Source of the DNA: a virus
Lineage: Duplodnaviria > Caudoviricetes
Virus record (IMG/VR): IMGVR_UViG_3300028591_000108
Span: 32,001-96,000 of that record
Strand: one strand, 5' to 3'
Length of the DNA stretch: 64,000 nt
Part shown: positions 2,483 through 21,390 of the stretch, in pieces
How positions within the stretch are numbered: the first letter of the stretch is position 1
Layout of the letters: each line of letters starts with the position of its first letter
The notes under the pieces: generated by a model
Told to the model about the DNA's origin: nothing
Databases searched by the model: none
Seen by the model: only the letters and a program-made list of their open reading frames with translations
Program-made: the position numbers and the translations under genes

Positions 2483-2717
2483 ATAGGAGGGGGCAGCAGC
2501 CCCTCTTTTTTTTATTGCTTCTGTTAGCCATAGCTAACTACTTTAGCAAGCTAAAGATGTCTAATCTGGTTACTTCCGTACTTTAGCGCACTAAAGCCAT
2601 ACCAGATACGACAATGTACGATCTGGTATTTTTTAGATGTATTACATCTAATTGTGAGGATTGACACACTTTGTGTTTTATGGTATAATGTAGAAAATGG
2701 TAAAGGGGGTTTTACTC

Positions 2718-2900
2718 ATGTGGGTTATTGGCGCGGGCATTATGGTAGGTGGGCTGTTAGCTATGCCATTAGTAGGCATTATCCCAGGGCTGGCTATTAT
2801 AGCAGCTGGAGCTGCATTAGCTGAGCTGGCAAACTATGCAGCTGAGCAAGCTGAAAGACGTAAGAAAGCTCCAACCGAATACCCAAGCTACAAGTACTAA
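2718..2900 (+). CDS. Small membrane protein
   Basis: Hydrophobic N-terminal half; cassette promoter and terminator. Confidence 0.7.
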   Translation: MWVIGAGIMVGGLLAMPLVGIIPGLAIIAAGAALAELANYAAEQAERRKKAPTEYPSYKY

Positions 2901-2950
2901 GCGCTTCGGCGCTTATCTTTTTTTAGATGTAATACATCTAAAAAGATGTG

Positions 2951-2979
2951 TTGACAAAAGAGGGTTCTTATATTATACT
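2951..2979 (+). promoter_or_regulatory. Representative sigmaA/sigma70-type cassette promoter
   Basis: TTGACA-17bp-TATACT, 9 bp after the palindrome at 2923; same layout at nearly every cassette (e.g. 3545, 4032, 7092, 8618, 18041). Confidence 0.85.
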
Positions 2980-3008
2980 TATACCATCAAATGAAGGAGG
3001 TCACCACC

Positions 3009-3221
3009 ATGAAGTACTTACTGATGAGCGAATATGAGACAATGAAGGTTTATGAACTGGACAACGTGATTTACAAGAAAATCGAGTACAAGTTTGTCAA
3101 GCTGACAGGTAGCGAGCTGATAGCACAAAAGCTGATGCTCAAGTTTGGCTCTCTCACTGTTCAACAGTTGAGCTGTAATTCTCAAGTCAATATCTTTGAT
3201 TGTTTTGAGATTCTCGGATAA
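3009..3221 (+). CDS. Hypothetical cassette protein
   Basis: RBS AAGGAGG; stop inside terminator hairpin. Confidence 0.75.
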   Translation: MKYLLMSEYETMKVYELDNVIYKKIEYKFVKLTGSELIAQKLMLKFGSLTVQQLSCNSQVNIFDCFEILG

Positions 3222-3354
3222 CCCGAGAATCTTTTCTTTATGGGTTTAGATGTAATACATCTAAAATCAGGGTTTGACAGATATGATATTCTATGATATA
3301 CTTATACCATCAAAGAGGGAAGGAAACCCACCAAACCAGAAAGGAAGGAAAAAC

Positions 3355-3492
3355 ATGAAGACCGTAGATATTATGAAGTGGGGCAAGGGATATTATGTGA
3401 CCATGCGCATTGGATGCAATGTCCAGCGTGAGTGGTGCAAGACAAAGAAGGCCGCCGAAACTCTCATGAAAAAGTGGCAGAAAGGGGAGTGA
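3355..3492 (+). CDS. Hypothetical cassette protein
   Basis: RBS; stop inside AAAGGGGA-GTGA-TCCCCTTT hairpin. Confidence 0.7.
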   Translation: MKTVDIMKWGKGYYVTMRIGCNVQREWCKTKKAAETLMKKWQKGE

Positions 3493-3617
3493 TCCCCTTT
3501 CTTTTATTATACCAGTTTAGATGTAATACATCTAAATATATAGATTGACATATATAGGCATATAATGTATACTACACTTGTCCGAAGGGACAATACAGAA
3601 AGAAAGAGGTAAGTACC

Positions 3618-3986
3618 ATGAAAAACAGCACTCTGATTAAACTCGTTACCGTCACTTGCGCTTGTATCCTTGCGCTCTTTGCGTGCTTTCCTGCGGAAGC
3701 CGAGCGAGCAGCCGCACAGGAAAAAGCCGAACTTGATCATGGCGAGATGTATCCAAAACTTACAGTAGTAATTGAATCAATCAAGATGGATGATCTATGG
3801 CTTATCTCGTGCCGTGACAGAGAAGGCAATGTGTGGACTTTTTGGGATGATGAAGATACTTGGGCCTACGGCGATATAGCCAATCTTCTGATGTGGGATC
3901 TTGAAGAAGAGGAAATTATTGAGGTATATTGGGAAGGATATACAGAGAATGTAGAGTTATTCTTCCAAACTATGGGATGGCGCTAA
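3618..3986 (+). CDS. Hypothetical secreted/membrane-anchored protein
   Basis: Signal-peptide-like N-terminus; RBS GAGGT. Confidence 0.75.
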   Translation: MKNSTLIKLVTVTCACILALFACFPAEAERAAAQEKAELDHGEMYPKLTVVIESIKMDDLWLISCRDREGNVWTFWDDEDTWAYGDIANLLMWDLEEEEIIEVYWEGYTENVELFFQTMGWR

Positions 3987-4103
3987 CGCGCCTTCCTACT
4001 TATTTAGATGTAATACATCTAAAAACAAGCATTGACATATAGATAAAAGTGAGTATAATTATACTTGTCCAAAGGGACAAAGAAAAGAAAGGGGAATTTC
4101 AAA

Positions 4104-4271
4104 ATGAAAACCTATTACTGGATGCACAAAGAATATGGTCACCTTGTTCCCGAAACCGATCTGTATAAGGATGCCGAAGAATTAGGTTATGATGATGTAA
4201 CTGACCCTTGTTCCGTAGAATACGGTAATTTCAATTTGTATTATGAAAAAACCAACATGACGGTCGAATGA
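4104..4271 (+). CDS. Hypothetical cassette protein
   Basis: RBS AAAGGGG; promoter/terminator context. Confidence 0.7.
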   Translation: MKTYYWMHKEYGHLVPETDLYKDAEELGYDDVTDPCSVEYGNFNLYYEKTNMTVE

Positions 4272-4391
4272 CCGTCATTTCCCCAAATTAGATGTAATAC
4301 ATCTAATAACAGGGATTGCAATTTCATTCTCTTTTTGATATACTAACATCATGAAAAAGGGATTGAAAAAAAATCCCGAATTGAGAGGAGA

Positions 4392-4619
4392 ATGGTCATG
4401 ATACTGTTTGAAGAAAAAATGTTGGATGCAAATAAGATTTTCTCCGCCGAAATTATTGATCATTTCAATTCAAAAAAAGTCTATTATAATTCTATTCTAA
4501 TGATTCATTTTCTTCCCGAAATGAAAATACCACATATAGACTTTGATTATAAAACTCACGAAGAAGCACTTTCAAAATTAAATCAACTTGTAACTTTGAT
4601 CAATTTACAGAGAAAATGA
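4392..4619 (+). CDS. Hypothetical cassette protein
   Basis: RBS GAGGAG; context. Confidence 0.65.
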   Translation: MVMILFEEKMLDANKIFSAEIIDHFNSKKVYYNSILMIHFLPEMKIPHIDFDYKTHEEALSKLNQLVTLINLQRK

Positions 4620-4767
4620 ATCCCATAACGGCATTGATAATGCCGTTATTTCATTTCCAATTCTTAGATGTAATACATCTAATTATCGCACTTGCACTGT
4701 TCCCATATCTACGATATAATATACTTGTCCGAAGGGGGACAATTTGAAAATGAAAAGGAGAAAAACA

Positions 4768-4950
4768 ATGAAAATCATCTTAAAGTATCAGGCTCCCGAA
4801 ACCAAGATTGAAGGATACAAGTTTTCCGCTGTTTACGATGAGACTGAGATTGACGAGGCTCTCTCCGAATTACAGGCCGCGCGCAAGTATGGATATGAAA
4901 TTACTTGTTGGACATTAGTTCATAATGAGGACGTTGAAAACGTCCTCTAA
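4768..4950 (+). CDS. Hypothetical cassette protein
   Basis: RBS AAGGAG; context. Confidence 0.7.
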   Translation: MKIILKYQAPETKIEGYKFSAVYDETEIDEALSELQAARKYGYEITCWTLVHNEDVENVL

Positions 4951-5068
4951 TTTTATTTCCAATTCTTAGATGTAATACATCTAATTTACTCTCTTGACTT
5001 TTCCCAAAAGTTCCTTTATAATCGGGTTGTACCCGATGAGGTACCGAAGAGAAAAGGAGGAAACAAAA

Positions 5069-5215
5069 ATGAAGTATCGTATTAGGAGCATCCAGTGGCC
5101 GTTAATGATTATTGAAGATGGTTTTTCTTCCGAACAGGCCGCCGCGAGTTGGGCCGAAGATAATATGTATCTTGGTGGCATTTGGTCCGGCGGTTGGATT
5201 ATTGAAAGTTATTAA
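5069..5215 (+). CDS. Hypothetical cassette protein
   Basis: RBS AAGGAGG; context. Confidence 0.7.
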   Translation: MKYRIRSIQWPLMIIEDGFSSEQAAASWAEDNMYLGGIWSGGWIIESY

Positions 5216-5340
5216 TTATAACGGCCTTCGGGCCGTTATAATTTTATTCTCGTTTTTAGATGTAATACATCTAAAAAAATCTCTTGCAACTATCCCATTT
5301 CTATGCTATACTTGTACCATCAAAGAAGGAGGTAACACCA

Positions 5341-5649
5341 ATGATTAACATTCGGACAATTCGGAAACTGCAGGAAAATGACGGGCTGACTTTGAAGGCG
5401 GGGCGTATCATTACTCATAAGACCGGCTATCAGGTAGCAGATTATGGGTATGAGCTGAAAACAGCTGAAGAAGCTATTCGCTGTGTCCGTGAGCTGAAAG
5501 GTAATTGCGGCATTTGGTACAGCGAAGGAATTTACTATATTGATCATTCCTTCCGCATCAGCACAAAAAAAGAAGCGCTTCGTATTGGGCGCGAGCACAA
5601 TCAAATTTCAATCTTAAAATGGAAAGATATGTCTCTTGTCTACTGCTAA
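5341..5649 (+). CDS. Hypothetical cassette protein
   Basis: RBS AGGAGGT; context. Confidence 0.8.
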   Translation: MINIRTIRKLQENDGLTLKAGRIITHKTGYQVADYGYELKTAEEAIRCVRELKGNCGIWYSEGIYYIDHSFRISTKKEALRIGREHNQISILKWKDMSLVYC

Positions 5650-5793
5650 AGTTGTGGCCCGAAATCGGGCCACAATTTCATTTTATTTCTTTTAGATGTA
5701 ATACATCTAATAATTGCTATTGCATTTTCCTTAAAGATATGCTATTATATACTTGTCCGAAGGGACAAGAAAAAAAGAAAAGAGGTAACTATC

Positions 5794-5946
5794 ATGGAGA
5801 CTATTTCTTATACACTCGAACGGCGCGATACCCTTAACTTTCACGGGTGGATTGTACTTGAATGTTGTGACAGCTGGGAAGATGAAATATTTTCTTCCAC
5901 TTCTCTTGAAGAGGCCCGGGCATTTCTTAATGATTTGATCGCGTAA
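5794..5946 (+). CDS. Hypothetical cassette protein (50 aa)
   Basis: RBS GAGGT; stop in TGATCGC-GTAA-GCGATCA hairpin. Confidence 0.65.
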   Translation: METISYTLERRDTLNFHGWIVLECCDSWEDEIFSSTSLEEARAFLNDLIA

Positions 5947-6071
5947 GCGATCATTTCATTATCAGTTTTTAGATGTAATACATCTAATAATACCTCTTGC
6001 ATTATTCCCGAAAGTATGATAATATACAATTGTTCCAAGGGGAACGATAAAAGAAAGAGAGGTAAACAGAA

Positions 6072-6347
6072 ATGAAGGTTCGGAAAATCAATGGTCATGA
6101 GTTCGCACAGGTGAAGGTTTATGAGTACGACAATGGCGCCAAGACGCTTGTAAGCTACGCCACCGCCGTGATTGGGATCAATCCGGAAGGCTGGCTTGAG
6201 GTGAGCGGGCTGTACAGCCGCACCACCATTAAGCATATCGGCTGGTTCATGCGCGAGCTGGGCTTCTCATATCAGCTGGCCAAACAGCTGTACATGGATA
6301 ACAAGCGGTTTAATATCTATACCGGTGAAATTGAGGATCGGGGCTAA
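6072..6347 (+). CDS. Hypothetical phage protein
   Basis: LVSYAT...YSRTTIKHI motif typical of small phage early proteins. Confidence 0.8.
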   Translation: MKVRKINGHEFAQVKVYEYDNGAKTLVSYATAVIGINPEGWLEVSGLYSRTTIKHIGWFMRELGFSYQLAKQLYMDNKRFNIYTGEIEDRG

Positions 6348-6466
6348 GCCCCGATTTTCTTTTATTCAAATAAATTAGATGTATTACATCTAACTTTATT
6401 ATTTGACTTCAAAACAAACTTGTGCTATTATATAACCATCCCAAGAGGATGAAAGGAGTAATAAAG

Positions 6467-6688
6467 ATGGAAGATTATTACAAGGTAGAATGGGAAACCT
6501 ATAATCCGTTTCTTGATGACGGCATCAGCATCGGCGCAGATATCCATAGCGAAATTATTATCTATGGTTTAGAACGAGCAAAAAGACTTTTTATCGAAAA
6601 GATAAAAGATGATTCTTGTCACGCTTGCTTTGTGACTCTTATCAATGATACCGAAGAAAACGGGCCGATTCTGTGCTATTGCCCGTAA
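6467..6688 (+). CDS. Hypothetical cassette protein
   Basis: RBS AAAGGAG; context. Confidence 0.7.
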   Translation: MEDYYKVEWETYNPFLDDGISIGADIHSEIIIYGLERAKRLFIEKIKDDSCHACFVTLINDTEENGPILCYCP

Positions 6689-6802
6689 GGGCAATTTTCT
6701 ATTTTAGATGTAATACATCTAAAACTATCTCTTGACTTCTATAAGAAAAATGATATAATGATATTGTCCTCAGAGAGAGGAACAAGAAAGGAAATTGAAA
6801 TC

Positions 6803-7042
6803 ATGTATCTGTTCTATGCTGATCGTCTCGGGTGGATTCCTATGGGAAATGATGGACAGCTTGTCGTGCCGAAGTCTATTCGTTCTCGCCGTGCCCTTCT
6901 CAAGCTGGCGGAAAGCTGGCTGGGCAATAGAGCTGGACGAGTATACCTTATGACCAGCTGGACTCAGGCTATGAGTGAACTTGGCCCGCGTGCTTTTGAA
7001 GAGTACATTATGCGCAATGCCGAAGTCCTTATCAGCAGATAA
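6803..7042 (+). CDS. Hypothetical cassette protein
   Basis: RBS AAAGGA; context. Confidence 0.7.
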   Translation: MYLFYADRLGWIPMGNDGQLVVPKSIRSRRALLKLAESWLGNRAGRVYLMTSWTQAMSELGPRAFEEYIMRNAEVLISR

Positions 7043-7159
7043 GGACTTCCCCTTTATGGGAACTTAGATGTAATACATCTAATAATGGGTATTGACAATC
7101 ATATACAAGTCTGTTATACTATAATCACTCCAAAGGGAGAAGAAAGGAAGGTAACTAAC

Positions 7160-7396
7160 ATGAAGTTCATGAGAATCGTTGTGACCACCTATACCGAAGA
7201 TCCTGCGTATACCAGCGCCGTTTTGTTCTATGATGATGACAAAGCTGACGTTCATCTGCACCTGCATCTGTCCTACGAAGAAGGGATGCGCGAGCTGCAT
7301 AAGCTCGAACAGAAGCTCGGCAAGCAGGCGGAGCGCACCATTAACCGCTTCAACAGCTCAATCATTGATGATGAAGTGTATGGTATCATCGAGTAG
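7160..7396 (+). CDS. Hypothetical cassette protein ending in TAG
   Basis: TAG lies within terminator GAGTAGGC-GAAA-GCCTACTC. Confidence 0.75.
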   Translation: MKFMRIVVTTYTEDPAYTSAVLFYDDDKADVHLHLHLSYEEGMRELHKLEQKLGKQAERTINRFNSSIIDDEVYGIIE

Positions 7397-7523
7397 GCGA
7401 AAGCCTACTCTACTATTATTAGATGTAATACATCTAAAACAAACTGTTGACTTCTTCTCTTCTTTATGCTATCATATAATTGTTCCAAGGGGAACGAAAT
7501 AAATATGAAAGAGGGACACGAAC

Positions 7524-7763
7524 ATGACAATGACAATCGAAAAGAAACTGAGAGACTTTCACTTCTGGAGCGGAGCCGCCGCCAATGCCGCCAAGCTGAC
7601 TCCGGAAGAGCTCGATCAAGCTGAAGAATATATGGAAACTCTTCCCTTCAGCGACGAAGAGCACTGGAGCACTACCGAAGTCAATGATATTTTCTGGTTT
7701 GACTTTGAAAGCGTATGCGAATGGCTGGGCCTGGACTATGAGGAAGTAATGGCGAGGGAGTAA
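7524..7763 (+). CDS. Hypothetical phage protein
   Basis: FHFWSGA...TEVNDIFWFD motif; context. Confidence 0.8.
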   Translation: MTMTIEKKLRDFHFWSGAAANAAKLTPEELDQAEEYMETLPFSDEEHWSTTEVNDIFWFDFESVCEWLGLDYEEVMARE

Positions 7764-7883
7764 TCCCTCGCTTATTTTCATTTTGTACATTTAGATGTAA
7801 TACATCTAAGTTTATGGTTTGACATTCTCCTTAAACTATGTTATTATATACTTGTCCAAAGGGGACAGAAAGGCGGTAAGCAT

Positions 7884-8105
7884 ATGATTAAGATTACTAA
7901 GGGCATGGCACGGAAACTGTACAACCACGGCGAAGAAGTTATGATTATCCCTAACCGCATCCGACCCAATTCTGCGCTTGCAAGCTGGACTCGCAAGCCC
8001 GAGCAGGAAGAAGGAGACTTTGATAAGCTGTGCAATGCTATCTTCTATTATAACTGCTCGCCCGAAACCGGTATGAACCTTACCTATTATGCGAAGGAAG
8101 TTTAA
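7884..8105 (+). CDS. Hypothetical cassette protein
   Basis: RBS; context. Confidence 0.75.
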   Translation: MIKITKGMARKLYNHGEEVMIIPNRIRPNSALASWTRKPEQEEGDFDKLCNAIFYYNCSPETGMNLTYYAKEV

Positions 8106-8244
8106 AGTAAATAATAATGAAGTTACGCCTGATGAATAGGCGTAATTTCGTTTCCCATATTAGATGTAATACATCTAATAACATCCGTTGACTTCTCTCC
8201 CGTAATATGATATACTTACATCATCAAAAAGGAGGTGCGAAGCA

Positions 8245-8568
8245 ATGGAAATGACTTATCATGTGGCGGTTCAGAGGGCAGATAGAGTAAAGCATATCAC
8301 GGAAGAAATTGGTCTGGGGCAAATTATCAAAGAAAAATATACTCACTTCAATCTTGGCCAAGCTGGGCGCTGGGTTTGCATTACTGATACTGGTATTACC
8401 ATTATAAAGGATGAACCCAAAGAAAAAATTATTACTATGTATGTAACCACGCAGAGAGAGCTGGTGCTTGTATACGGCGGAGCAAAAAACGTGCCGGCTT
8501 TCCTGCGGAAAAAAGTGGATAAAAATCAGTCTAAGTATACGCAAGCTGGGAAAACCATTTGGCGCTAA
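8245..8568 (+). CDS. Hypothetical cassette protein
   Basis: RBS AAGGAGGT; context. Confidence 0.8.
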   Translation: MEMTYHVAVQRADRVKHITEEIGLGQIIKEKYTHFNLGQAGRWVCITDTGITIIKDEPKEKIITMYVTTQRELVLVYGGAKNVPAFLRKKVDKNQSKYTQAGKTIWR

Positions 8569-8669
8569 GCGCCAATTTGGTTTTCGGATTTAGATGTAAT
8601 ACATCTAAAATCCCATATTGACTTTTCTCCCATAATGAGTATAATTAACAGTGTCAGGAGGGATGAGAA

Positions 8670-8825
8670 ATGGAACGAGCAAGGTACAAGAAACTCGATG
8701 AACTCGCCGCTTGGGACTTGAACAAAGGTTGCCGCAAGTGGATTGACCAAAGCACACCCGCCAGACGGAGATTGAAAAAACGCTTGCGGAAGCAAGCACG
8801 GGCAAGACTGAAAGGAGAATGGTAA
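8670..8825 (+). CDS. Small basic hypothetical protein
   Basis: RBS AGGAGG; TAATG coupling to next gene. Confidence 0.6.
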   Translation: MERARYKKLDELAAWDLNKGCRKWIDQSTPARRRLKKRLRKQARARLKGEW

Positions 8826-9055
8826 TGAGAAATGCAAAAGAAGGAACTTATAACGGAGAGCCTACATTCTGCACGGTAAATGCTTATGGTGATTGTCCTT
8901 ACTGCGATCAGTGCGGCATCTGTCATATTGATGACCCGATGGAAGATTGCGAAGACTTCGCAATGTTCTTCCAAGGAGATTGGAATTTCTGGCTGAATTT
9001 GAAGGATGTTCCCGATGAAGGAGAAGACGCCGATGAATTTTGGTGGGATTATTAA
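8825..9055 (+). CDS. Cys-rich acidic hypothetical protein
   Basis: CPYC..C.IC motif; RBS AAAGGAG. Confidence 0.7.
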   Translation: MRNAKEGTYNGEPTFCTVNAYGDCPYCDQCGICHIDDPMEDCEDFAMFFQGDWNFWLNLKDVPDEGEDADEFWWDY

Positions 9056-9065
9056 GGAGAATAAA

Positions 9066-9335: not shown

Positions 9336-9429
9336 GGAAGCCTTTCATACTTAGATGTAATACATCTAATTTTATCATTTGACTTTTCTCTAATTTTATT
9401 ATATAATGCCAATGTAAGGAGGGGATAAA

Positions 9430-9606
9430 ATGAGTAAGAAGAAAAACCCGAAACAGAAAACATGGGTTGAAGTATTTCAGTCTGAGCGCAAGGAATTTCC
9501 GCAGGGCTATTGTGTTACTCGCATTATCCCCGACAAGCGCAACAAGAAGCCGAAACATAAGGGAAGGGAATTTGCAGATCATTTAATTGATGTGTGCGGA
9601 GTATAA
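9430..9606 (+). CDS. Small basic hypothetical protein
   Basis: RBS AAGGAGG; MSKKKNPKQKTW... Confidence 0.6.
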   Translation: MSKKKNPKQKTWVEVFQSERKEFPQGYCVTRIIPDKRNKKPKHKGREFADHLIDVCGV

Positions 9607-10110: not shown

Positions 10111-10210
10111 TTCCTCCTTTAGTTATTAGATGTAATACATCTAAAACCAAGACTTGCTTTTTCTTCCCGAATATGTTATTATACTCTTGCCGGAAGGGTA
10201 GAAAGGAGAA

Positions 10211-10656: not shown

Positions 10657-10774
10657 TGCGGGAAACCGCATTTCATTTTCTATATTAGATGTAATACATC
10701 TAAAACAATCGTTTGACATTTTCCTTAATCTATGCTAATATATACTTGTTCCGAGGGGAACAGAAAGAGAGGAA

Positions 10775-11224: not shown

Positions 11225-11511
11225 CCCAATTTCATTTCTGGGAATTAGATGTAATACATCTAAATCAAATACTTGCATTTTCCCAAATTTGTGATATACT
11301 GTAATTGTTCCAAGGGGAGAGGAAAATGAAGTGCCATGCACAGACACGCATTTATGCGATAGGACAGGCGCAATACGAAAACCTCACTTGCAAGTCCCTA
11401 AAGAACAAAAAGAAATTTCAAAAAAACACTTGACAAGCTCGAAAACCTATGGTATAATAACTACGAAAACAGGGGAAGGAAAACCCCCACAAACCAGAAA
11501 GGGAACTGATT

Positions 11512-11832
11512 ATGAAGAAGACCACCATGAACACCATCCTGTCTCTGATTGCCACCATCGACACTCCCGAAGCCGAAGCTGTTCGGACTGAGCTGACCGC
11601 TGAACTGAACCGCGGAAAGGCCAAAGCTGAAGCCAATCGGACTATCTATGGCGAGATTCACGATGCCGTGATCAAAGTTCTGAAGTCCGCTATTGCTCCC
11701 GTGACTGCCCAGGAGCTGGCTGACGAGACGGGGTATGCCAAGGGCAAGGTCGTCTACGGTCTGACCAATTACTGGACTGATGAAGTCGAGAAGATCGAAG
11801 GCAAGACTAACACTTACGTTCTCAAGGCGTAA
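11512..11832 (+). CDS. Winged-helix DNA-binding protein (paralog 1)
   Basis: PVTAQELADETGYAKGKVVYGL...EGKTNTY; close to 15302 and 17051. Confidence 0.7.
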   Translation: MKKTTMNTILSLIATIDTPEAEAVRTELTAELNRGKAKAEANRTIYGEIHDAVIKVLKSAIAPVTAQELADETGYAKGKVVYGLTNYWTDEVEKIEGKTNTYVLKA

Positions 11833-12001
11833 TTCCTTTCCTCTCGGGCGCTTCGGCGCCCTTTTATTTTAGAGTAGTTTTAGATGTATTACATCTAAAA
11901 TTGTATACAGTATACATTGTTGACAAAAAATAAAATTTATGATATAATTTCCTTGGAAATCAGGAGAAGGATACTCCTAAAACCGGAAGGAGAGATTTGA
12001 A

Positions 12002-12406
12002 ATGACGAAAGCACAGCTTGAAACCGCAATCCGTAATGACTTCCTGACCGCTATTTCTACTTTTATTTCCGAAAGCCGAGACACCGATGTACTTTCTGTT
12101 AGCACAAGCGAACTCGCTGTTCCTTGCCTTGATGCTATGGGCAACGAAAAATGGGTACTGATTAAGGTTTCTATTCCTCGTGGTACTCGCAACGGTGAAG
12201 GTGGTTATGACCCCTATGATGGTTATTCCGCCGCCGAAGATTACCAGATCGAACAGGCGGACAAGGCCGAAAAGAAAGCCAAAGCCGAAGAAAAGAAACA
12301 GGCGAAAATTGCAAAAGACCAGAAAGCAAGGGAAGAGAAGAAAGCCCTCGCCGAAGCGAATAAGGGCTTGAAGGAACTCCGCAAGATTAAAACTGAAGGG
12401 GAATAA
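12002..12406 (+). CDS. Hypothetical protein with K/A/E-rich coiled C-terminus
   Basis: RBS; similar architecture to 12537. Confidence 0.8.
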   Translation: MTKAQLETAIRNDFLTAISTFISESRDTDVLSVSTSELAVPCLDAMGNEKWVLIKVSIPRGTRNGEGGYDPYDGYSAAEDYQIEQADKAEKKAKAEEKKQAKIAKDQKAREEKKALAEANKGLKELRKIKTEGE

Positions 12407-12536
12407 TCCCCTTCTTTTTCTGAAAGGTTATTAGATGTAATACATCTAATTCTTCTTATTGACACTTTTTAAATTTCATGCTATACTATGCGTGAAAGGT
12501 GAAGGAAAACACCAGAAAACCAGAAAGGAATTTGAA

Positions 12537-13276: not shown

Positions 13277-13437
13277 CGCGAGCTAACTTCATTTTTTTAT
13301 GCTTAGATGTAATACATCTAAAATCTACTCTTGCATTTTCCCATATTTCTGTTATAATATACTTGTTCCTGATGAGGGGCACAAAGTGAGGAGAAGGAAA
13401 ACTCCCGTAATGAAACCCACGGCAGAAAGGACTCTAT

Positions 13438-14427
13438 ATGGCTCGTAAGGAAATGCGGTATCTGGTTCTCGATTGCGAAACTGCGACTCTTCCCTTTGCG
13501 TCTGAACTTGCAAATGGTGATGCAGAAAAGAAGAAGAAAATTGCTATTGCCCGCCCTCTGATTTATGATATCGGATGGACCATTACCAATCGCAAGGGCG
13601 AAATTCTGGATAGCAAGCAGTTTCTGATTGCAGAAACTTTCTCTGTTCCGTCTGTATTCAATACCGCATATTACGCCGAAAAGCGGCCGATCTATCTGGA
13701 AATGCTTCAGCGCAAAGAAACCAGTATTAAGACATGGTATGAAGTTGCCAGTCTGTTGGAACAGGATATGCAAAAAGTTAATGCTGTCGGCGCTTACAAT
13801 TCCATGTTTGATTTCAAAAAGGCTATCCCTTTCACGGAGCTTTATATAAATAAACTGTACAGTCCCGAATATCAGGCTTGGGAGCGTACTCAGCGCAATC
13901 TGTGCTATAAGATTATGAATGAACGATATCAGAAGAATGAAGACAAGGAATTTGATAGCGAAACGTTCAAATTCCGTGGTAATGAATACCCTCTGTTCGA
14001 TCTCTGGGGACTTGCTACTAAACATCTTCTGAACAATGTTTCTTATAAGAAGCAGTGTCTGACTAATGAGATGCTCACGGCAAGCGGAACTTTCTTTAAG
14101 ACGAGCGCAGAAGCAACTTTCCGGTATCTGATGGATAAGTATGACTTCAACGAAGCGCATACCGCTCTCGATGATGCTACTATTGAAACTTATATTCTGA
14201 GCCAGATTGCAAAGAAAAGCGCAATTACTCTTGGGATTATCTTCTTCCCTTTCAGGGAACTTGGAACAACGGATGAATTTGTTCTGAGACTGAAAAAGCC
14301 GAAGCAGGAAGAAATTAAAATCGTGATTGATGCTATGGCGCATTATCTGACTACTAAAGAACCGTCCGCATATACTGCTCATATTCAGAATATCGTTTCT
14401 TGCCTGACAGAGTACCTCCCCATGTGA
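13438..14427 (+). CDS. DEDDh 3'-5' exonuclease (DnaQ/RNase T-like)
   Basis: LVLDCETAT (ExoI), AYNSMFD (ExoII), HTALDDA (ExoIII). Confidence 0.85.
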   Translation: MARKEMRYLVLDCETATLPFASELANGDAEKKKKIAIARPLIYDIGWTITNRKGEILDSKQFLIAETFSVPSVFNTAYYAEKRPIYLEMLQRKETSIKTWYEVASLLEQDMQKVNAVGAYNSMFDFKKAIPFTELYINKLYSPEYQAWERTQRNLCYKIMNERYQKNEDKEFDSETFKFRGNEYPLFDLWGLATKHLLNNVSYKKQCLTNEMLTASGTFFKTSAEATFRYLMDKYDFNEAHTALDDATIETYILSQIAKKSAITLGIIFFPFRELGTTDEFVLRLKKPKQEEIKIVIDAMAHYLTTKEPSAYTAHIQNIVSCLTEYLPM

Positions 14428-14536
14428 GGTACTCCTTTTTTCTCCCGAAATATTAGATGTATTACATCTAACTATATCTCTTGACTATTTTTCCTTCCTA
14501 TAGTATACTTGTATCATCAAAGAGGAGGTAGGAGCG

Positions 14537-15046
14537 ATGAAAGATTACGAAATTCAGGCCAGAACGTTGCTTCAGAAACTTTATCCTTACATTGAGCATC
14601 TGACTGATGTTTGGAGCATTGACAATGCTATTACGGAGTTTAATTATAAGAATGAAACTCAAATTGAATTGAAATATGGTTCTACCCGTATCGCGCTCAT
14701 TTGCAATGATTTCGTCATTAAATTTAACTATAACGGTTGGGGTTCCGGCCGTTTTGGAAATGGTGCCAGTGAAGTGCGTATGTACCGTAAAGCAGTCAAA
14801 GACGGTTTCGGATATTTGTTTGCTCCCATTGTTCCTGTCCGCAAAGGATATAATCGTACTTTCTATATTATGCCTAAAATTCATGATATTGGCAAGTGCG
14901 ATGAAAATGCCGAAGAGTTCTTGAATGGCGAAGAGTACGATTATATTGACAGTAATATTGGAGATACTCACTATGAAAATTATGGTTGGGAAGATGGCCA
15001 TATTGTATTAATTGATTATGCGTATAATATCACACTCTGGCAGTAA
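14537..15046 (+). CDS. Minimal protein-kinase-like protein
   Basis: YGSTR...FVIK, E, DTHYENYG catalytic loop, LIDYA. Confidence 0.7.
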   Translation: MKDYEIQARTLLQKLYPYIEHLTDVWSIDNAITEFNYKNETQIELKYGSTRIALICNDFVIKFNYNGWGSGRFGNGASEVRMYRKAVKDGFGYLFAPIVPVRKGYNRTFYIMPKIHDIGKCDENAEEFLNGEEYDYIDSNIGDTHYENYGWEDGHIVLIDYAYNITLWQ

Positions 15047-15301
15047 GCCAGAGTTTCTCTATTAGATGTATTACATCTAAAACCAATTGTTGACTTTTTC
15101 TAAAATTGTGATATACTATAATTGTTCCGAGGGGAAAGGGAATCCTCCTGCTGGGAGATGAAGCACCTAATGTGAGATAGGGTGCGGGGACTCACAAAGT
15201 TGAAAAAACTTTCCCTTTCCCCTTGACAAAATCCCAAATCTATGATATACTAATCACGAACAAAGGGAAGGACACCCTACAAACCAGAAAGGAATTTGAC
15301 G

Positions 15302-15622
15302 ATGAAGAAAGTTACTATCGAGACTCTGGTTGCCTATCTGAACGGTGAGACTGTGACCAATCTGGATGAAATCAAGGCTGAACTGGAAGCCGAACTGAAC
15401 AAGGGCAAAGCGCAGAAGGAAGCTAATCAGGCGATTTACGCCGAGATTCATGATGCCGTGATCGAAGCCCTGGCTTCTGCGGAAAATCCCGTTACCGCTC
15501 AGGAACTGGCCGATGAGACTGGTTACCCGAAGGGTAAGATCGTATATGGTCTGTCTCACTACTGGAACGAAGAGATCAAGAAGATCGAGGGTAAGGTTAA
15601 TTCCTACGCTCTCAAGGCGTAA
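15302..15622 (+). CDS. Winged-helix DNA-binding protein (paralog 2)
   Basis: IYAEIHDAVI...PVTAQELADETGYPKGKIVYGL. Confidence 0.7.
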   Translation: MKKVTIETLVAYLNGETVTNLDEIKAELEAELNKGKAQKEANQAIYAEIHDAVIEALASAENPVTAQELADETGYPKGKIVYGLSHYWNEEIKKIEGKVNSYALKA

Positions 15623-15688
15623 ACTTTCCCTCCCACGAGGATTTCTAAGGGCTTTCAGTGTGGCTAAACAACATAAGCCCTTCTATAT

Positions 15689-15799
15689 GGGAAGTGCAAG
15701 CTACTTCAGGGTTGTAGCCACCAAGTTTCGGAAGAAACAGAGTGAATGAGTGGAAACGCGATGACGCCCACTGGAGTTCAAATCTCCCACTTTCCACCA
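15689..15799 (+). ncRNA. tRNA-like RNA (8-bp acceptor/4-bp T-stem, G3-U70, encoded CCA, no anticodon loop)
   Basis: GGGAAGTG pairs with CACTTTCC-A-CCA; T-arm GGAG-TTCAAAT-CTCC; D-like arm GCTAC-TTCAGGGTT-GTAGC; central GTTTC-GGAA-GAAAC. Confidence 0.55.
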
Positions 15800-16014
15800 G
15801 AAGAGTTTTCGGGAGTACAGTTCTCTTGGGCGAAAAACAAAACTGCTCTCTGACGGGTATCAAAGATACCGCCAACCGCCTTCGGGCGGTATTTTTTTTC
15901 AAATAAATTTAGATGTATTACATCTAAATATATCTCTTGCGCTTTTCCCGTAATATGATATACTATTAGCATGAAGTGAAGGAATAACACTATAAAACCA
16001 GAAAGGCAATTAAT

Positions 16015-16767
16015 ATGAATGTACTGGTACTGGATACGGAAACCACCTCTCTTGACAAGCCCTTTTGTTATGACTGTTCATGGGTTATCATGAATACCGA
16101 TTCCGGCGAATTGGTTGATTTTTCTGCTAATGTTATTGAACAGGTATGGCATAATCTTCCCCTGTTTGAATCCTCCTATTATAAGGAAAAGCGCCCCAAA
16201 TATATCACTATGATGCGCAATCATTCCGCTTGTATGGATAAATGGGGCTATGTTATGAAGAAATTAGCAAGAGCTATTCGCCAGTATAATATCACTGATG
16301 TTTATGCTTATAACAGCGACTTCGATGATAAAGTAATTATTTTTAATTGCGATTGGTATAAATGTAATAATCCCCTTGAAACTGTAGCTATTCATGATAT
16401 TTGGGGATATGCGAGTGCTTATGTAACAGGCACAAAAACATATAAAGCATTTTGTGAAAAGTATTCTCGTTTTACTGATACCGGCAACTATAAAGGTAGT
16501 GCAGAAGTAGTATACCAGTATCTTACAAATAACCCCGATTTCATTGAAGAGCATATGGGACTGTTTGACAGTGAAATTGAAGCACAGATTCTGTACGCTT
16601 GTATGCAGATGGGCGCTAACTGGGGCGAAGATTTGAAAGTAAATAAAATTCTCCCCAGAGTACAAGAAACACCGTTTACAATTAAAGTCAATGGCGAAGA
16701 ATTGTATCAGGGGAAATATGTTAAGAAATATGTACGTAATGGTACTTATTCCTTCACAACTCTGTAA
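16015..16767 (+). CDS. DEDDh 3'-5' exonuclease (paralog of 13438)
   Basis: LVLDTETT, AYNSDFD, HMGLFDS; shared YYxEKRP.Y and KxSAE motifs. Confidence 0.85.
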   Translation: MNVLVLDTETTSLDKPFCYDCSWVIMNTDSGELVDFSANVIEQVWHNLPLFESSYYKEKRPKYITMMRNHSACMDKWGYVMKKLARAIRQYNITDVYAYNSDFDDKVIIFNCDWYKCNNPLETVAIHDIWGYASAYVTGTKTYKAFCEKYSRFTDTGNYKGSAEVVYQYLTNNPDFIEEHMGLFDSEIEAQILYACMQMGANWGEDLKVNKILPRVQETPFTIKVNGEELYQGKYVKKYVRNGTYSFTTL

Positions 16768-17050
16768 CATATGGGCGCATCTGCGCCCGTATCATATTTA
16801 GATGTAATACATCTAATAGAAACACTTGCGTTTTTCTGAAATTTGAGTATAATAATAATTGTTCCGAGGAGATGAAGGAACAGACCAAGTGCTCAATGGG
16901 TATTATCTGGCCCGAGCGTGTGGACTTCTGCAGTTCGCCACACAAAATTCCCCGAAAAAAATGCTTGACAAAAGCAAAAATCCATGATATAATAACTACG
17001 AAAGATGAAGAGAAGGAAAACTCTTAAAAAACCAGAAAGGAATTTTGAAA

Positions 17051-17377
17051 ATGAAGATCACCACCTACGCCACCGTTTACTCCTTCCTGACTGCTAATGG
17101 TTTCGACAATGCTGAGATTCTCGCTGAGTTCGAGAAGGAACTGAATCGCAACGCTGAAGCGAAGCAGGCGAAGGAAACCCTGTACGCCGAAGCTAAGCCC
17201 ATTGTTCTGGGTGCGATGGACGCTCCTGCCACGATTACCGAGATTTTCGAAGCGGTGAAGGAGACTCTGCCCGATGGCTTCACGAAGGGCAATCTCCAGT
17301 ATGCGGTGACTCGTCTGTGGAAGGACGAGGTTGAAAAGACCGAGGGCAAGGTCAACACCTACGCTCGCAAGACGTAA
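17051..17377 (+). CDS. Winged-helix DNA-binding protein (paralog 3)
   Basis: PATITEIFEAV...FTKGNLQYAVTRLW...EGKVNTY. Confidence 0.65.
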   Translation: MKITTYATVYSFLTANGFDNAEILAEFEKELNRNAEAKQAKETLYAEAKPIVLGAMDAPATITEIFEAVKETLPDGFTKGNLQYAVTRLWKDEVEKTEGKVNTYARKT

Positions 17378-17519
17378 TACCACCGAACACCCTCCCTTAC
17401 GGGAGGGTTTCTTTTATTTCAAATTATTAGATGTGTTACATCTAATTTCTCATATTGACATTCTCCCATAATGTGGTATAATGGCATTGTTCCAAGAGGA
17501 TAGAAAGGATGGATTGAAA

Positions 17520-17726
17520 ATGATTGGAAAATGGTGCAAAGAACATAGTATTACTTATGATTATGAAGATATAATTAAAACGCTTGCGCAATATGTATCA
17601 GGAATGGATGGCTCTACACTTACTAAAGCAGATGGTAAAGCCTTACATAAAATGTATGAAATTAATCCAGAAATTCTAAGTTTACTATGCAATGCTTTTG
17701 AAGATAAAGGCTATGAATCATTTTAA
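17520..17726 (+). CDS. Hypothetical protein
   Basis: RBS AAAGGATGG. Confidence 0.65.
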   Translation: MIGKWCKEHSITYDYEDIIKTLAQYVSGMDGSTLTKADGKALHKMYEINPEILSLLCNAFEDKGYESF

Positions 17727-17750
17727 GGAATAGAAAGGGATAGGACGAGA

Positions 17751-17990
17751 ATGAAGATTGAATTTAATGTTCACGGCGTATTTGACTTTGACTTTAGCGA
17801 GAAACGGCAGGAAGAATTACTTCAAGATGCAAAGAGCTATCCGGGCGGTATAGTTTCTCTCTTGCTTGATAATTTGGAAATTGCACGCGATGAAGTTTCA
17901 ACGGAAAGTATTTTTACCATTGACCCTTACCAATTTGCTAAAATGCTTAGCGTATTGATAAAAAAAGAAAAAGAAGAAAATGCTCCCTGA
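17751..17990 (+). CDS. Hypothetical protein
   Basis: Stop in AAATGCTC-CCTGA-GAGCATTT hairpin. Confidence 0.7.
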   Translation: MKIEFNVHGVFDFDFSEKRQEELLQDAKSYPGGIVSLLLDNLEIARDEVSTESIFTIDPYQFAKMLSVLIKKEKEENAP

Positions 17991-18106
17991 GAGCATTTTT
18001 ATTTTACAACTATTAGATGTATTACATCTAAAGTACAATATTGACTTTTCTTATAATTCTGATATAATAAGATTGTTCCAAGAGGAACAGAAAGGATGGA
18101 GCGAAA

Positions 18107-18343
18107 ATGAAAATCTACGCTGTTGAATGTATCAGTGGTGAAGTAATGGGGCCTTGTGGGCTTTTTTCTACGATGAATCTTGCTATCAGTGAAACTATTC
18201 ATCGTAATAGTTTTCGTACTGATACTCCTACCATTGAGATGAATGATATTGACGCAGGAATTGTTTACGAAGGCAATGATGATTATAACTATACCGAATA
18301 TTATATTAGAGAATATGAACTGAATAAATGGGAGGAGAATTGA
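18107..18343 (+). CDS. Hypothetical protein
   Basis: RBS GGAG; context. Confidence 0.7.
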   Translation: MKIYAVECISGEVMGPCGLFSTMNLAISETIHRNSFRTDTPTIEMNDIDAGIVYEGNDDYNYTEYYIREYELNKWEEN

Positions 18344-18757: not shown

Positions 18758-18868
18758 ACCGCCATTTCATATTTAGATGTTTAACATCTAAATTAAGCGA
18801 TTGACTTTTCCTAAATTTGTGGTATATTATAATTGTTCTGAAGAGAACGGAAAGGAAGGAAAAATATA

Positions 18869-19129
18869 ATGGATATGGAAACAAGAGTCTATACAATCAG
18901 TCTTTATAATTATCATGGCGAAACTTATGAAGAGCGTTACTTTCAGATGAAACACGCGCTCGCCCGCTTCATTGAATTACAAGAAGAGGGCAAAACGCAT
19001 GATGAGTTTAAGTTTGACCAAGATTACTTTAAGTTCTTCGACGCCGATTATAATGAATATTGTACTTATATTGCTTTTACTAATTGCGCTCTCAAAGATT
19101 TATTTGTGGATGAAATGGAGGCAAAATAA
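18869..19129 (+). CDS. Hypothetical protein
   Basis: RBS; context. Confidence 0.7.
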   Translation: MDMETRVYTISLYNYHGETYEERYFQMKHALARFIELQEEGKTHDEFKFDQDYFKFFDADYNEYCTYIAFTNCALKDLFVDEMEAK

Positions 19130-19324
19130 ATGAGTGAGTTTGAAACTATGTGCCGTATGATTACCAAGTTCCCTCCTCGGAATGAATATGGCGAAGACCA
19201 GTATAAAATAAAGAAAATCCGTAAAGGGCATATTATTTATTTTGCCACTGATGATTCTTATTGTTGGGCAAGTTTATATTTCAATTCCGAAGGTAAATTT
19301 ATAGGCTTCTGCTCGCCCGACTGA
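19130..19324 (+). CDS. Hypothetical protein
   Basis: RBS GGAGG. Confidence 0.65.
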   Translation: MSEFETMCRMITKFPPRNEYGEDQYKIKKIRKGHIIYFATDDSYCWASLYFNSEGKFIGFCSPD

Positions 19325-19404
19325 AAACAATTAAATGCGCCCTTATGGGCGCATTTTCTCTAAAGAGAATTAGATGTATTACATCTAATAATAAAATGCC
19401 CTGC

Positions 19405-19689
19405 TTACCGCAAGGCATTTTTTACTTTATCCCAAAACGATGGTACTTCAATATAGAAATCAGATACACCAACTTTATAATACGGTATTTTTATACCATT
19501 CTGTTCTTTCAAATACCACAGTTCATCATAGTCAGGATGCGTAGGATACCATTGCGCTTTTCCTACTTCATAATAGATTCCAATAATATTCTCATCGCTA
19601 AGATAACCTTCATACTCTTCTGCTCCAATAATTTCCTCATCAGTCCACGGACAATAGAGAATGATACGCTTTTTCTTAATCTTTTTCAC
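19405..19689 (-). CDS. Hypothetical protein (inverted block)
   Basis: RBS GGAGGT; GTGA overlap with upstream gene. Confidence 0.7.
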   Translation of the reverse strand: MKKIKKKRIILYCPWTDEEIIGAEEYEGYLSDENIIGIYYEVGKAQWYPTHPDYDELWYLKEQNGIKIPYYKVGVSDFYIEVPSFWDKVKNALR

Positions 19690-20060
19690 GTTCCCGACAC
19701 CTCCCTATACGCCATTTTCCAAGCCGCGTGCAATGCTTCATGACTCGTAGGTTGCGGAATATTCCCAGTATAATAAGACAGAAGAGATTTATCTATTTGT
19801 CTATACTTTCTCAAATCATCATCGTATGCGGCAATCAGATTCAAAATACGCTTCTGATAGGTTTCAATCTCTTGAAGTTCTACATTTTTGTCCGGCCCAT
19901 CAGGAAGCATTTCTGCACTTCCTTTACACACAATAATCTTGTGACAATAGTTTCTCATCAATTGCTTATGCTCACACAGATTGTTTAACAGCTCTTTCAT
20001 GTGAATATCTTCACCGCTCCAAATTTCCTGCTCTTTCTTTCTTCCAAACATTTCTTTCAA
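19686..20060 (-). CDS. Hypothetical protein (inverted block)
   Basis: RBS AAAGGAG; minus-strand promoter 9 bp from palindrome 20119. Confidence 0.7.
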   Translation of the reverse strand: MKEMFGRKKEQEIWSGEDIHMKELLNNLCEHKQLMRNYCHKIIVCKGSAEMLPDGPDKNVELQEIETYQKRILNLIAAYDDDLRKYRQIDKSLLSYYTGNIPQPTSHEALHAAWKMAYREVSGT

Positions 20061-20169
20061 CTCCTTTCTGAGTACAGATACATTATAACAGAATATAAAG
20101 AAAAGTCAAGCACCCTCTTTAGATGTATTACATCTAACTTTAATAAGAGGAGCAAAACTCCTCTTCTCC

Positions 20170-20655
20170 TTAATATCCTAAGTCATAGCGCCCGTCTTCA
20201 TAATGTCCATATACCCAGTATTTCTTATACTCCGTATCGAACCAAGAAACATATCCACAATTTTTCAAATCATCCTTAAATTCTTCTTCAGTAAATTCAT
20301 CTCCGTCTGCCCAATACGCACCCTGCCGGAAAACTTTCCAGACCTCTTCCGGTACAAGATTGTGACGACCATAGCCCTTATAATGAGCGATTACGGTTGG
20401 CGCTACGTCTTCATGGTCTTCACAATCATTATCCCAATAATACAGCGCCATTCCCTCATTCATAGAATCTTCGTACTGCTTTACCAGTTCCGCTTCTTCA
20501 TTATCTACAAACTTATATACTTCAAACCGATAAGTCGGATGATTCTTATTAAACCAATCTTCCCAATCATTCACCAGAAACATCGGTTCACGATCAGCAT
20601 CACATTCATACTGGTCACCAAGTTCTACGCACTTTACAATCAGATACTTCGTCAT
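20170..20655 (-). CDS. Acidic hypothetical protein (inverted block)
   Basis: RBS AAAGGAG; promoter 9 bp from palindrome 20742. Confidence 0.8.
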   Translation of the reverse strand: MTKYLIVKCVELGDQYECDADREPMFLVNDWEDWFNKNHPTYRFEVYKFVDNEEAELVKQYEDSMNEGMALYYWDNDCEDHEDVAPTVIAHYKGYGRHNLVPEEVWKVFRQGAYWADGDEFTEEEFKDDLKNCGYVSWFDTEYKKYWVYGHYEDGRYDLGY

Positions 20656-20773
20656 TTTATAGCTCCTTTCGGTTTCTCAGTGTTTTCCTTCACTTCATGT
20701 CTGTATTATATCACAAGTATAGAAAAAGTCAAGCAACGCTTTTAGATGTATTACATCTAACTTCTCAAGACCG

Positions 20774-21178
20774 TCAGACAGTCTTGCAGTAGAAACACCA
20801 TTTAATATCAAAAACATATTTCAATTCAAATCCTTCAGTCTCTAATAAATGCCGCATCCCCATATTGTCGCTCCATGGCGTAGCTCCAATATTTCCATGC
20901 GCTATTTTTGCACATTCGTGTAGCGCAAAACGAGCTATACCTTTTCCCTGATTTTTCTTATTACAAATACATAATCTTTTGATAGCGGTATATCCATACT
21001 GTTCCTCTGGCACAAGAGATACTGTAGCCAGCACCTTTTCCCCTTCCGCAACGACGTATAATTTCTCATTACAATAATCTGCTTTTACCAACTCGGGAGT
21101 AATATAAGATAAGTCTTTACAATAAAGAGCTTTCACAACCTTTATCAAGTCGGTGCGAGTTGCCTGTCTAAATTCCAT
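20774..21178 (-). CDS. GNAT-family acetyltransferase
   Basis: IKRLCI...QGKGIA motif A; N..MRHLLETEGF. Confidence 0.8.
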   Translation of the reverse strand: MEFRQATRTDLIKVVKALYCKDLSYITPELVKADYCNEKLYVVAEGEKVLATVSLVPEEQYGYTAIKRLCICNKKNQGKGIARFALHECAKIAHGNIGATPWSDNMGMRHLLETEGFELKYVFDIKWCFYCKTV

Positions 21179-21390
21179 TTCTTCATCCCCTCTCGGTTGA
21201 TATCTATATTATACTCGAAAATAGAAAAAAGTCAATGGCCACTTTAGATGTATTACATCTAACTTTTCCTCTTGACAAATCAAATGTTCATGTGCTTCCG
21301 AACATTTCGCCCTAAATCTCTACTAATGTTTATTACTTGACATGTCGGCGCCTTATCCCATAAGCTACATTTCCGCTGTCAAGTACTTGA

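Follow-up and report, generated by a model that had tools for sequence, protein, structure and literature searches.

We analysed a 64,000-nucleotide (nt) stretch of a rumen phage genome (hereafter the window), corresponding to bases 32001–96000 of the 141,913-bp IMG/VR virus record IMGVR_UViG_3300028591_000108 (CheckV completeness 78%). The window carries an array of small genes punctuated by a repeated, perfectly symmetric palindrome (Table 1). The palindrome stands at a fixed distance from the promoters of the array, and most likely serves as the operator of a symmetric, dimeric DNA-binding protein. Its copies are also the points at which the gene cassettes between them are gained and lost.

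An exact search recovered 36 copies of TTAGATGT-N3-ACATCTAA, where shuffled sequence gives an expectation of 0. Allowing up to three mismatches returned the same 36 sites and no degenerate copies, and a search of the whole record found none outside the array. These counts agree with a preliminary description of the locus, made from its letters alone, which had confined 36 copies to this span. Neighbouring palindromes are 271–1150 bp apart, which matches the unit size of about 270–1150 bp given there. The pattern of two arms around three free nucleotides, also proposed there, is exact at all 36 sites, but the true symmetry in this phage is 9+1+9. The element is thus a 19-bp perfect dyad, TTAGATGTA-A/T-TACATCTAA.

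Architecture of the array

The array comprises a main arm on the plus strand (sites 1–32) and a short opposite arm on the minus strand (sites 34–36). Units of the main arm share one order of elements: terminator hairpin, T-run, palindrome, 9 nt, TTGACA-like box, 16–17 nt, TATAAT-like box, leader, ribosome-binding site and ATG. The leaders often open with a small hairpin, and the ribosome-binding sites of this arm are strong. At sites 34–36, minus-strand genes are driven from promoters at the same spacing of 8–9 nt. Site 33 has a promoter on neither side and is flanked by converging terminators. The promoter-to-terminator module of the preliminary description stands, with the correction that some units have a further promoter that lacks a palindrome.

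By a rough gene call, the array has about 50 genes, whose median length is 78 amino acids (aa). Fifty of them end in TAA (34), TGA (14) or TAG (2), and none contains an in-frame TAG. In the genes flanking the array, TAG is used as a sense codon (window 1–655 and 22793–64000; G000 1625–18175). Reading it as glutamine opens open reading frames (ORFs) of 5516 aa (160 TAG codons) and 3087 aa (32 TAG codons), together with many further TAG-containing ORFs on both sides of the array. The 3087-aa ORF contains tail-fibre repeats, and an NlpC/P60-SH3 lysin is encoded close by. The array is thus a standard-code block inside a TAG-recoded rumen phage, which matches the expectation for early genes.

A megablast search of the array against 50,697 phage records gave no match. 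The host is probably a Firmicute. Array fragments with several palindromes have been binned into metagenome-assembled genomes (MAGs) of Acutalibacteraceae, Oscillospiraceae and Bacillota (short contigs L131, L162, L193 and L231), and these mis-binned fragments give a weak hint of an Oscillospirales host.

Phasing of the palindrome to one class of promoters

The same exact pattern occurs on 34 related IMG/VR contigs of up to 190 kb, which hold about 770 further sites in arrays. A promoter scoring at least 9 out of 12 lies beside 81% of 806 sites (654 sites). At these promoter-bearing sites, the gap between palindrome and −35 box measures 9 nt in 79% and 8–10 nt in 97%. Among 515 spacers of 9 nt we counted 424 different sequences, so the length of the spacer is constrained and its sequence is free. 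The clade consensus reads, in order, a T-rich stretch, the palindrome, an A-rich 9 nt, TTGACa, 17 nt and TRTGnTATAAT. In the usual numbering, and with a 17-nt promoter spacer, the dyad spans approximately −63 to −45. About 21.5 bp, or two helical turns, separate its centre from that of the −35 box, which places it on the same face of the DNA as the bound polymerase.

The record contains 56 strong sigmaA-like promoters, of which 39, mostly outside the array, are without a palindrome; the palindrome thus marks one class of promoters. Many of these 39 belong to a second class, consisting of near-consensus TTGACT-17-TATAAT promoters with AAATAT or AAATAC abutting the −35 box and no palindrome. It precedes middle and late genes, including TAG-rich ones. 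Within the array, three winged-helix genes have tandem promoters, made up of a palindrome promoter, a leader of about 100 nt and a strong palindrome-less promoter.

This geometry bears on a different explanation, in which a host or virion-delivered protein would activate or insulate the early promoters, for example as a substitute for an UP element or as a block to read-through. The site occupies the UP-element slot, where palindrome-less relatives have A/T tracts, and shares a helical face with the −35 box; acting as a roadblock or insulator, it would also account for the palindromes found at convergent junctions. However, near-consensus promoters with an extended −10 element (TRTGnTATAAT) should need no help, and each unit already ends in an intrinsic terminator. 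Moreover, among 185,579 bacterial species representatives no multi-copy genome was found except mis-binned phage fragments, so that no host regulon is visible. We regard such a positive element as unlikely.

In the same set of bacterial genomes the 19-mer is present in 118 stretches, against about 140 by a rough chance estimate. The exceptions to these single bacterial copies are the mis-binned phage fragments, in Oscillospirales MAGs, and one conserved Neobacillus/Bacillus locus. The regulon of a host transcription factor therefore finds no support here, since bacteria otherwise carry only single copies at a near-chance number. In about 25 Neobacillus/Bacillus genomes, the same 19-mer (centre ATG or AAG) closely follows a TACAAT box and precedes a 112-aa DeoR-like winged-helix gene (L139 667–1042 and others). 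By its position, it may be the operator of that adjoining gene, which is a statement about these bacteria and says nothing about the phage. The Neobacillus regulator was also considered as a relative of the phage family and rejected on its marginal similarity (hhalign probability 57%); it serves as an analogy only.

Two further small elements accompany the array promoters. In many array promoters, a small conserved TTGTCCGAAGGGACAA-like hairpin is found right after the −10 box; it occurs in the array only and on the plus strand only. It probably sits at the 5′ end of the transcript, where it could stabilise the mRNA, mark a processing site or act as a second operator. A AAACCAGAAAGGAA ribosome-site motif is common to several of the other array leaders.

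Palindrome arms as independent half-sites

In sister lineages, the same position is occupied by symmetric arm variants, namely TTGGATGT..ACATCCAA, TTAGGTGT..ACACCTAA and TTAGGTGG..CCACCTAA, as well as by an 18-bp form. Other relatives have A/T tracts in the palindrome slot and a GC-rich GCCGGC-type motif further upstream. Positions 9 and 11 of the palindrome are A..T or T..A, as set by the lineage.

Two genomes carry mixed arms. In one, which mixes A and G at position 3, 17 of the 36 sites are hybrids, in agreement with the fraction of 0.48 expected for independent half-sites. In the second, which is mixed at position 5, hybrids account for 11 of 37 sites. Hybrid sites would be mismatched in a hairpin or cruciform and are nevertheless common, so the arms behave like a pair of half-sites for a symmetric protein to which either purine is acceptable. 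Their behaviour fits a dimeric DNA-binding protein rather than a hairpin.

These observations weigh directly on the idea that the palindrome acts as a protein-free DNA structure. In this model, it would form an extruded cruciform or hairpin, comparable to the hairpin promoters of the N4 virion RNA polymerase, or a hotspot of replication slippage, and gene conversion would keep its copies uniform. A perfect AT-rich dyad with a 3-nt centre has the required form, and arm changes between lineages are symmetric. Genomes differ in their centre, which is uniform within each of them, and this suggests concerted evolution. Yet the hybrid half-sites, which would be mismatched whichever strand is extruded, are as frequent as independence predicts, and positions 9 and 11, placed in the loop by this model, nevertheless co-vary symmetrically. 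The model also leaves the fixed phasing to the −35 box unexplained. The likeness to N4 fails on the common hybrid arms, on the full sigmaA promoter that follows each site, and on the giant 3087-aa ORF, which is a tail fibre and not a polymerase. We consider a protein-free structure very improbable.

Two side observations concern other motifs. In L238 (IMGVR_UViG_3300032030_000041), L242, L244 and L250, the cargo DNA is up to 92% identical to that of the window lineage and the TTAGATGT palindrome is absent. Their junctions carry a GC-rich motif of the GCCGGC(CCG) type, followed by an A/T tract or a TTAACA..TGTAACA motif. In these four, the regulatory modules have been swapped and the cargo kept. 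A second perfect dyad, TGTATACAGTATACA, has two copies in the window. One of them is located between palindrome 23 and the −35 box of the very conserved 134-aa gene, and similar copies occupy the corresponding place in relatives, including palindrome-less ones.

Gain and loss of cassettes at the palindromes

The closest relative of the window is IMGVR_UViG_3300028833_000063 (G001). By protein-level synteny, 27 of the 36 units are common to the two and follow the same order apart from paralog cross-hits, which speaks against the free shuffling of cassettes suggested earlier. In more distant relatives the backbone is still collinear, and moves are local.

Of 224 left ends of DNA homology blocks, 80 coincide with the left edge of the palindrome. 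We scanned all array pairs for clean insertions and deletions (indels) with flanks at least 85% identical, which yielded 41 pairwise calls; about 30 are distinct, so the calls are not independent events. The indel runs from palindrome to palindrome in 33 calls, and the remainder have junctions elsewhere. In the 33 palindrome-bounded cases, the flanks overlap in the other genome by 19–81 bp, always including the palindrome, and overlaps of this size fit homology. The ENA scaffold L259 was left out of the set because its apparent indels coincide with N runs; in this scaffold, N runs of 100 nt with duplicated flanks lie exactly at palindrome–promoter modules (approximately 6640–6740 and 11330–11428).

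Two window segments absent from G001 were checked base by base, and in both the junction is exactly the 19-mer. At each missing segment G001 has a single palindrome, with DNA orthologous to the left unit on its left and to the right unit on its right. Slots with replaced cargo likewise have their boundaries at palindromes, and a palindrome-bounded inversion of a single cassette distinguishes the window from 3300031992_000126. Across the arrays, nearly every switch from rightward to leftward genes has exactly one promoter-less palindrome between the terminators, and at divergent junctions one palindrome is common to the two promoters. The opposite arm is found throughout the clade and is thus not a recent inversion. 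Aligning gain and loss breakpoints in relatives, the check suggested in the preliminary description, thus bears out its proposal of autonomous expression modules added and lost at the palindromes; relatives also show units replaced and occasionally inverted there.

The preliminary description had seen no recombinase in the window, and this extends to the whole record. Neither Phage_integrase (PF00589) nor Resolvase was found in the phage's own record or in five relatives that are 93–100% complete, and Y1_Tnp (PF01797) was absent from its own record and four relatives; controls were positive in both searches.

These results bear on the possibility of a dedicated cassette-exchange system, in which an unrecognised phage protein would cut and rejoin or synapse the palindromes and regulation would be secondary. 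Most clean indels do run exactly from palindrome to palindrome, several of them sharing only the 19-mer, cassette inversions are palindrome-bounded, and decayed palindrome copies are absent. Site inversion predicts the orphan palindrome at nearly every convergent junction and the shared one at divergent junctions, and most array proteins are of unknown function. Against such a system stand the lack of tyrosine or serine recombinases (six records) and of a Y1 transposase (five records), and a perfect 9+1+9 dyad without an asymmetric core that could give direction. Known tyrosine and serine recombinases use an overlap of 2–8 bp. In addition, common cassettes are collinear, arrays are overwhelmingly co-directional, about one-fifth of the indels have their junctions elsewhere, and recombination does not require a strict phasing to the −35 box. 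Taken together, the orphan palindromes, the junctions with identity over 19 bp only and the failure to find a recognisable recombination enzyme in the records searched lead us to retain this explanation as an improbable one.

A more specific form of the idea is just as much a long shot. Here, a lytic, TAG-recoded megaphage clade would possess a new exchange system, in which a single palindrome binder, outside the known recombinase families, governs the early promoters and also acts on the palindromes by synapsis or cleavage. If true, ready-to-express early genes, possibly with counter-defence functions, would be captured, dropped and inverted as units, and the palindromes of sister lineages would represent separate “compatibility groups”.

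Cargo proteins and neighbouring features

Almost no array cargo matches a known family. The exceptions are a GNAT acetyltransferase, a deoxyribonucleotidase-like protein and two paralogs with a weak exonuclease lead, the 329-aa member of which is found in 31 related stretches (about 28 contigs). Elsewhere in the clade, the GNAT cassette occurs at a different place in the array or in flipped orientation. Two cargo proteins received only weak automatic names from Atlas, and a PDB sequence search gave no match. For the very conserved 134-aa protein we obtained 1218 homologs and a fair model, which had no fold match. A role of the cargo in anti-defence or host takeover, as first proposed, stays a guess because almost all of it is without a family match.

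The three winged-helix paralogs are about 108 aa long. An AlphaFold2 model of paralog 2 (predicted local distance difference test score 94) has a MarR/ArsR/Z-alpha-like fold, and two metagenomic homologs carry GbsR/MarR-type names.

Downstream of the array lies a standard-code gene for a Thg1-like tRNA-His guanylyltransferase (Pfam E-value 4e-28). No Rfam families were found in window positions 1–24000, and no tRNA genes in the window.

Table 1. Coordinates of the palindromes, genes and promoter elements in the window
Feature	Position	Strand	Remarks
Whole array	2633..21262	both	36 palindromes bounding 35 cassettes, about 50 small genes
Palindrome 1	2633..2651	+	centre ATT; −35 box 9 nt downstream
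Palindrome 2	2923..2941	+	promoter
Palindrome 3	3246..3264	+	promoter
Palindrome 4	3517..3535	+	promoter; 122-aa cargo, same slot in L262 holds other DNA with a 70-aa gene
Palindrome 5	4004..4022	+	promoter
Palindrome 6	4288..4306	+	promoter; cassette to 4664 missing in L262, junction inside a 46-bp overlap that holds the palindrome
Palindrome 7	4664..4682	+	left junction of 573-bp two-cassette segment (4683–5255) missing in G001
Palindrome 8	4966..4984	+	promoter
Palindrome 9	5256..5274	+	right junction of the 573-bp segment
Palindrome 10	5692..5710	+	promoter, TTGCAT −35 box
Palindrome 11	5969..5987	+	promoter, TTGCAT −35 box
Palindrome 12	6375..6393	+	centre ATT; left junction of 310-bp cassette (6394–6703) missing in G001
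Palindrome 13	6704..6722	+	right junction of the 310-bp cassette
Palindrome 14	7064..7082	+	promoter
Palindrome 15	7419..7437	+	promoter
Palindrome 16	7791..7809	+	promoter
Palindrome 17	8160..8178	+	promoter
Palindrome 18	8590..8608	+	promoter
Palindrome 19	9351..9369	+	promoter
Palindrome 20	10126..10144	+	promoter
Palindrome 21	10685..10703	+	promoter
Palindrome 22	11245..11263	+	promoter; downstream palindrome-less promoter (~11430) drives winged-helix gene 11512–11832
Palindrome 23	11880..11898	+	sole plus-strand site with −35 box 22 nt off; gap holds TGTATACAGTATACA palindrome
Palindrome 24	12431..12449	+	promoter
Palindrome 25	13303..13321	+	promoter
Palindrome 26	14453..14471	+	promoter
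Palindrome 27	15062..15080	+	promoter; palindrome-less promoter (~15223) before winged-helix gene 15296–15622
Palindrome 28	15909..15927	+	promoter
Palindrome 29	16798..16816	+	promoter; palindrome-less promoter (~16965) before winged-helix gene 17045–17377
Palindrome 30	17427..17445	+	centre GTT; promoter
Palindrome 31	18013..18031	+	promoter
Palindrome 32	18773..18791	+	centre TTA; promoter
Palindrome 33	19370..19388	.	promoter-less orphan between converging terminators
Palindrome 34	20119..20137	-	minus-strand promoter 9 nt away
Palindrome 35	20742..20760	-	minus-strand promoter
Palindrome 36	21244..21262	-	minus-strand promoter 8 nt leftward, lone TTGACA 9 nt rightward (divergent junction)
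Winged-helix paralog 1	11512..11832	+	106 aa
Winged-helix paralog 2	15296..15622	+	108 aa from TTG start (106 aa from ATG at 15302)
Winged-helix paralog 3	17045..17377	+	110 aa
Very conserved early protein	12002..12406	+	134 aa; extra TGTATACAGTATACA palindrome in promoter
Cargo protein	13438..14427	+	329 aa; paralog of 16015–16767, weak DEDD-exonuclease lead
GNAT acetyltransferase cassette	20774..21178	-	opposite arm
TGTATACAGTATACA dyads	11902..11916, 22592..22606		
TTGTCCGAAGGGACAA-like hairpins	3578, 4065, 4725, 5753, 6764, 7852, 10746, 11305, 18073	+	
TTGACT-class promoters	705, 21687, 24198, 24476, 53705, 55312		many more beyond the window (G000 102712–140052)
Thg1-like gene	29889..30680		

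Discussion

With a rough probability of 0.55, we favour a reading in which the array is an operator regulon on early promoters and the operator doubles as a preferred crossover point for short-homology recombination. The preliminary description missed both the strict phasing of palindrome and −35 box and the independence of the half-sites, which together argue for a primary role as a protein operator on the early promoters. According to this reading, a phage early or middle protein would accumulate and then shut off or throttle about 35 early units together. As near-consensus sigmaA promoters need no activator, repression, in the form of an early shut-off, would be the likelier sign of regulation. 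Later genes would rely on palindrome-less promoters and on additional gating by TAG recoding. The palindrome is the longest perfect repeat between neighbouring units and would therefore be the preferred crossover for short-homology recombination or replication slippage. Between palindromes, whole promoter–cargo–terminator units are gained, lost or exchanged and now and then turned round, which gives a plastic early-gene region on a conserved, collinear backbone; the driving force would be homology rather than a catalyst acting at the site. The anatomy, the phasing, the conservation across the clade, the behaviour of the half-sites and the junctions are observed directly, and the binding of a protein, its repressive action and the homology-driven exchange are inferred from them.

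Several points weigh against the operator regulon. At −63 to −45 the site misses the core promoter, so simple steric repression is unexpected, and the geometry would suit activation or insulation equally well. If the site were an operator and nothing else, the promoter-less palindromes at nearly every convergent junction would be unexplained, and the orphan at 19370 is exact in at least three relatives although its flanking DNA is only about 74–79% identical. On the side of recombination, many junctions share only 19 bp of identity, which is short for ordinary homologous recombination, and RecA, RecT and ERF recombinases were not found in four records. All relatives are metagenome assemblies; the repeats break such assemblies and can yield chimeric joins that mimic indels. 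Finally, no binder was identified. The most obvious candidates, the three winged-helix paralogs, were first favoured because of their fold and copy number and because each has a palindrome-less promoter of its own, as would befit a repressor escaping its own shut-off. Their recognition helices are identical in the TTAGATGT, TTAGGTGT, TTAGGTGG and palindrome-less lineages, and this lack of co-variation with the site leaves the idea without support.

The closest parallel in architecture is found in T4-type phages, whose promoter-early stem-loop (PeSL) cassettes place modules of a terminator and a strong sigma70-type early promoter between small, mostly unknown, non-essential ORFs of a hyperplastic region (Arbiol et al. 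2010, PMC2839356; Comeau et al. 2014, PMC4122927). The present array likewise lies in a variable region and sets its small ORFs between repeated modules, each combining a terminator with a strong early promoter; where close relatives differ by an insertion, deletion or replacement, the junctions map to these modules. Unlike in PeSL cassettes, the crossover here is a separate perfect 19-bp dyad that is neither terminator nor promoter. Its distance to the −35 box is fixed at 9 nt, it is also found at convergent junctions, where it lacks a promoter, and its arms vary symmetrically by lineage. Furthermore, this phage is TAG-recoded, probably infects a Firmicute, and has no sequence or taxonomic relation to T4.

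The regulatory half of the favoured reading resembles the SPBRE of SPbeta, a 15-bp motif in about ten promoters of this temperate phage that is bound by the master repressor MrpR (YopR) and keeps lysogeny; the binding was shown 24 years after the sites had been predicted from sequence (PMC10516654). In both cases, one short conserved element is repeated in many early promoter regions of a large Firmicute phage. As expected of an operator regulon, the motif of the present array is limited to one promoter class and fixed in position relative to the core promoter. The present system differs in its 36 perfect dyads, its strict −35 phasing, the coincidence with indel junctions and a phage in whose record no integrase was found, and no MrpR-like or other binder was identified here.

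Other repeated sites offer more partial parallels. Like the stoperators of mycobacteriophage L5, the palindromes repeat one short site dozens of times in the narrow gaps between genes, with repressor binding putative in the present case. The L5 sites, from a temperate phage, are reported (Brown et al. 1997) to be 13 bp long, asymmetric and orientation-dependent, to act on elongation and not to be promoter-phased, whereas those described here are 19-bp symmetric and phased. Small unrelated cassettes that are gained and lost at a repeated palindromic site recall integrons, and an integron-like architecture had been proposed in the preliminary description. Integron attC sites are imperfect palindromes of 57–141 bp with extrahelical bases, and they are read as single-strand hairpins. 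The array differs from integrons in its perfect 19-bp dyad, in half-sites that are independent, so that pairing is not selected, in a promoter and terminator for each cassette instead of a common Pc, and in the conserved order of common cassettes. Integrons have an adjacent tyrosine recombinase, IntI; no integrase was found in the records searched here, and we do not maintain the integron analogy. REP/RAYT and IS200/IS605 palindromes differ in that their Y1 HUH transposase (PF01797) is absent from the five records searched.

What is new here is the combination of a PeSL-like plastic early region with a probable operator regulon; both halves have published precedents. For uncultured gut and rumen megaphages, the finding bears on two matters. 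One is how early and late genes are separated in a phage that has host-type promoters throughout, with a putative operator class on the early array beside TAG recoding. The other is how large pools of tiny early genes of unknown function turn over. Exact junctions allow an automatic delimitation of cassettes on hundreds of metagenomic contigs, and the resulting list of independently mobile early genes can be screened for roles in host takeover or anti-defence. The symmetric variants that distinguish the lineages provide a natural experiment for finding the binder by co-variation. If recombination at the palindromes were catalysed rather than incidental, the array would represent a new kind of gene-capture system.

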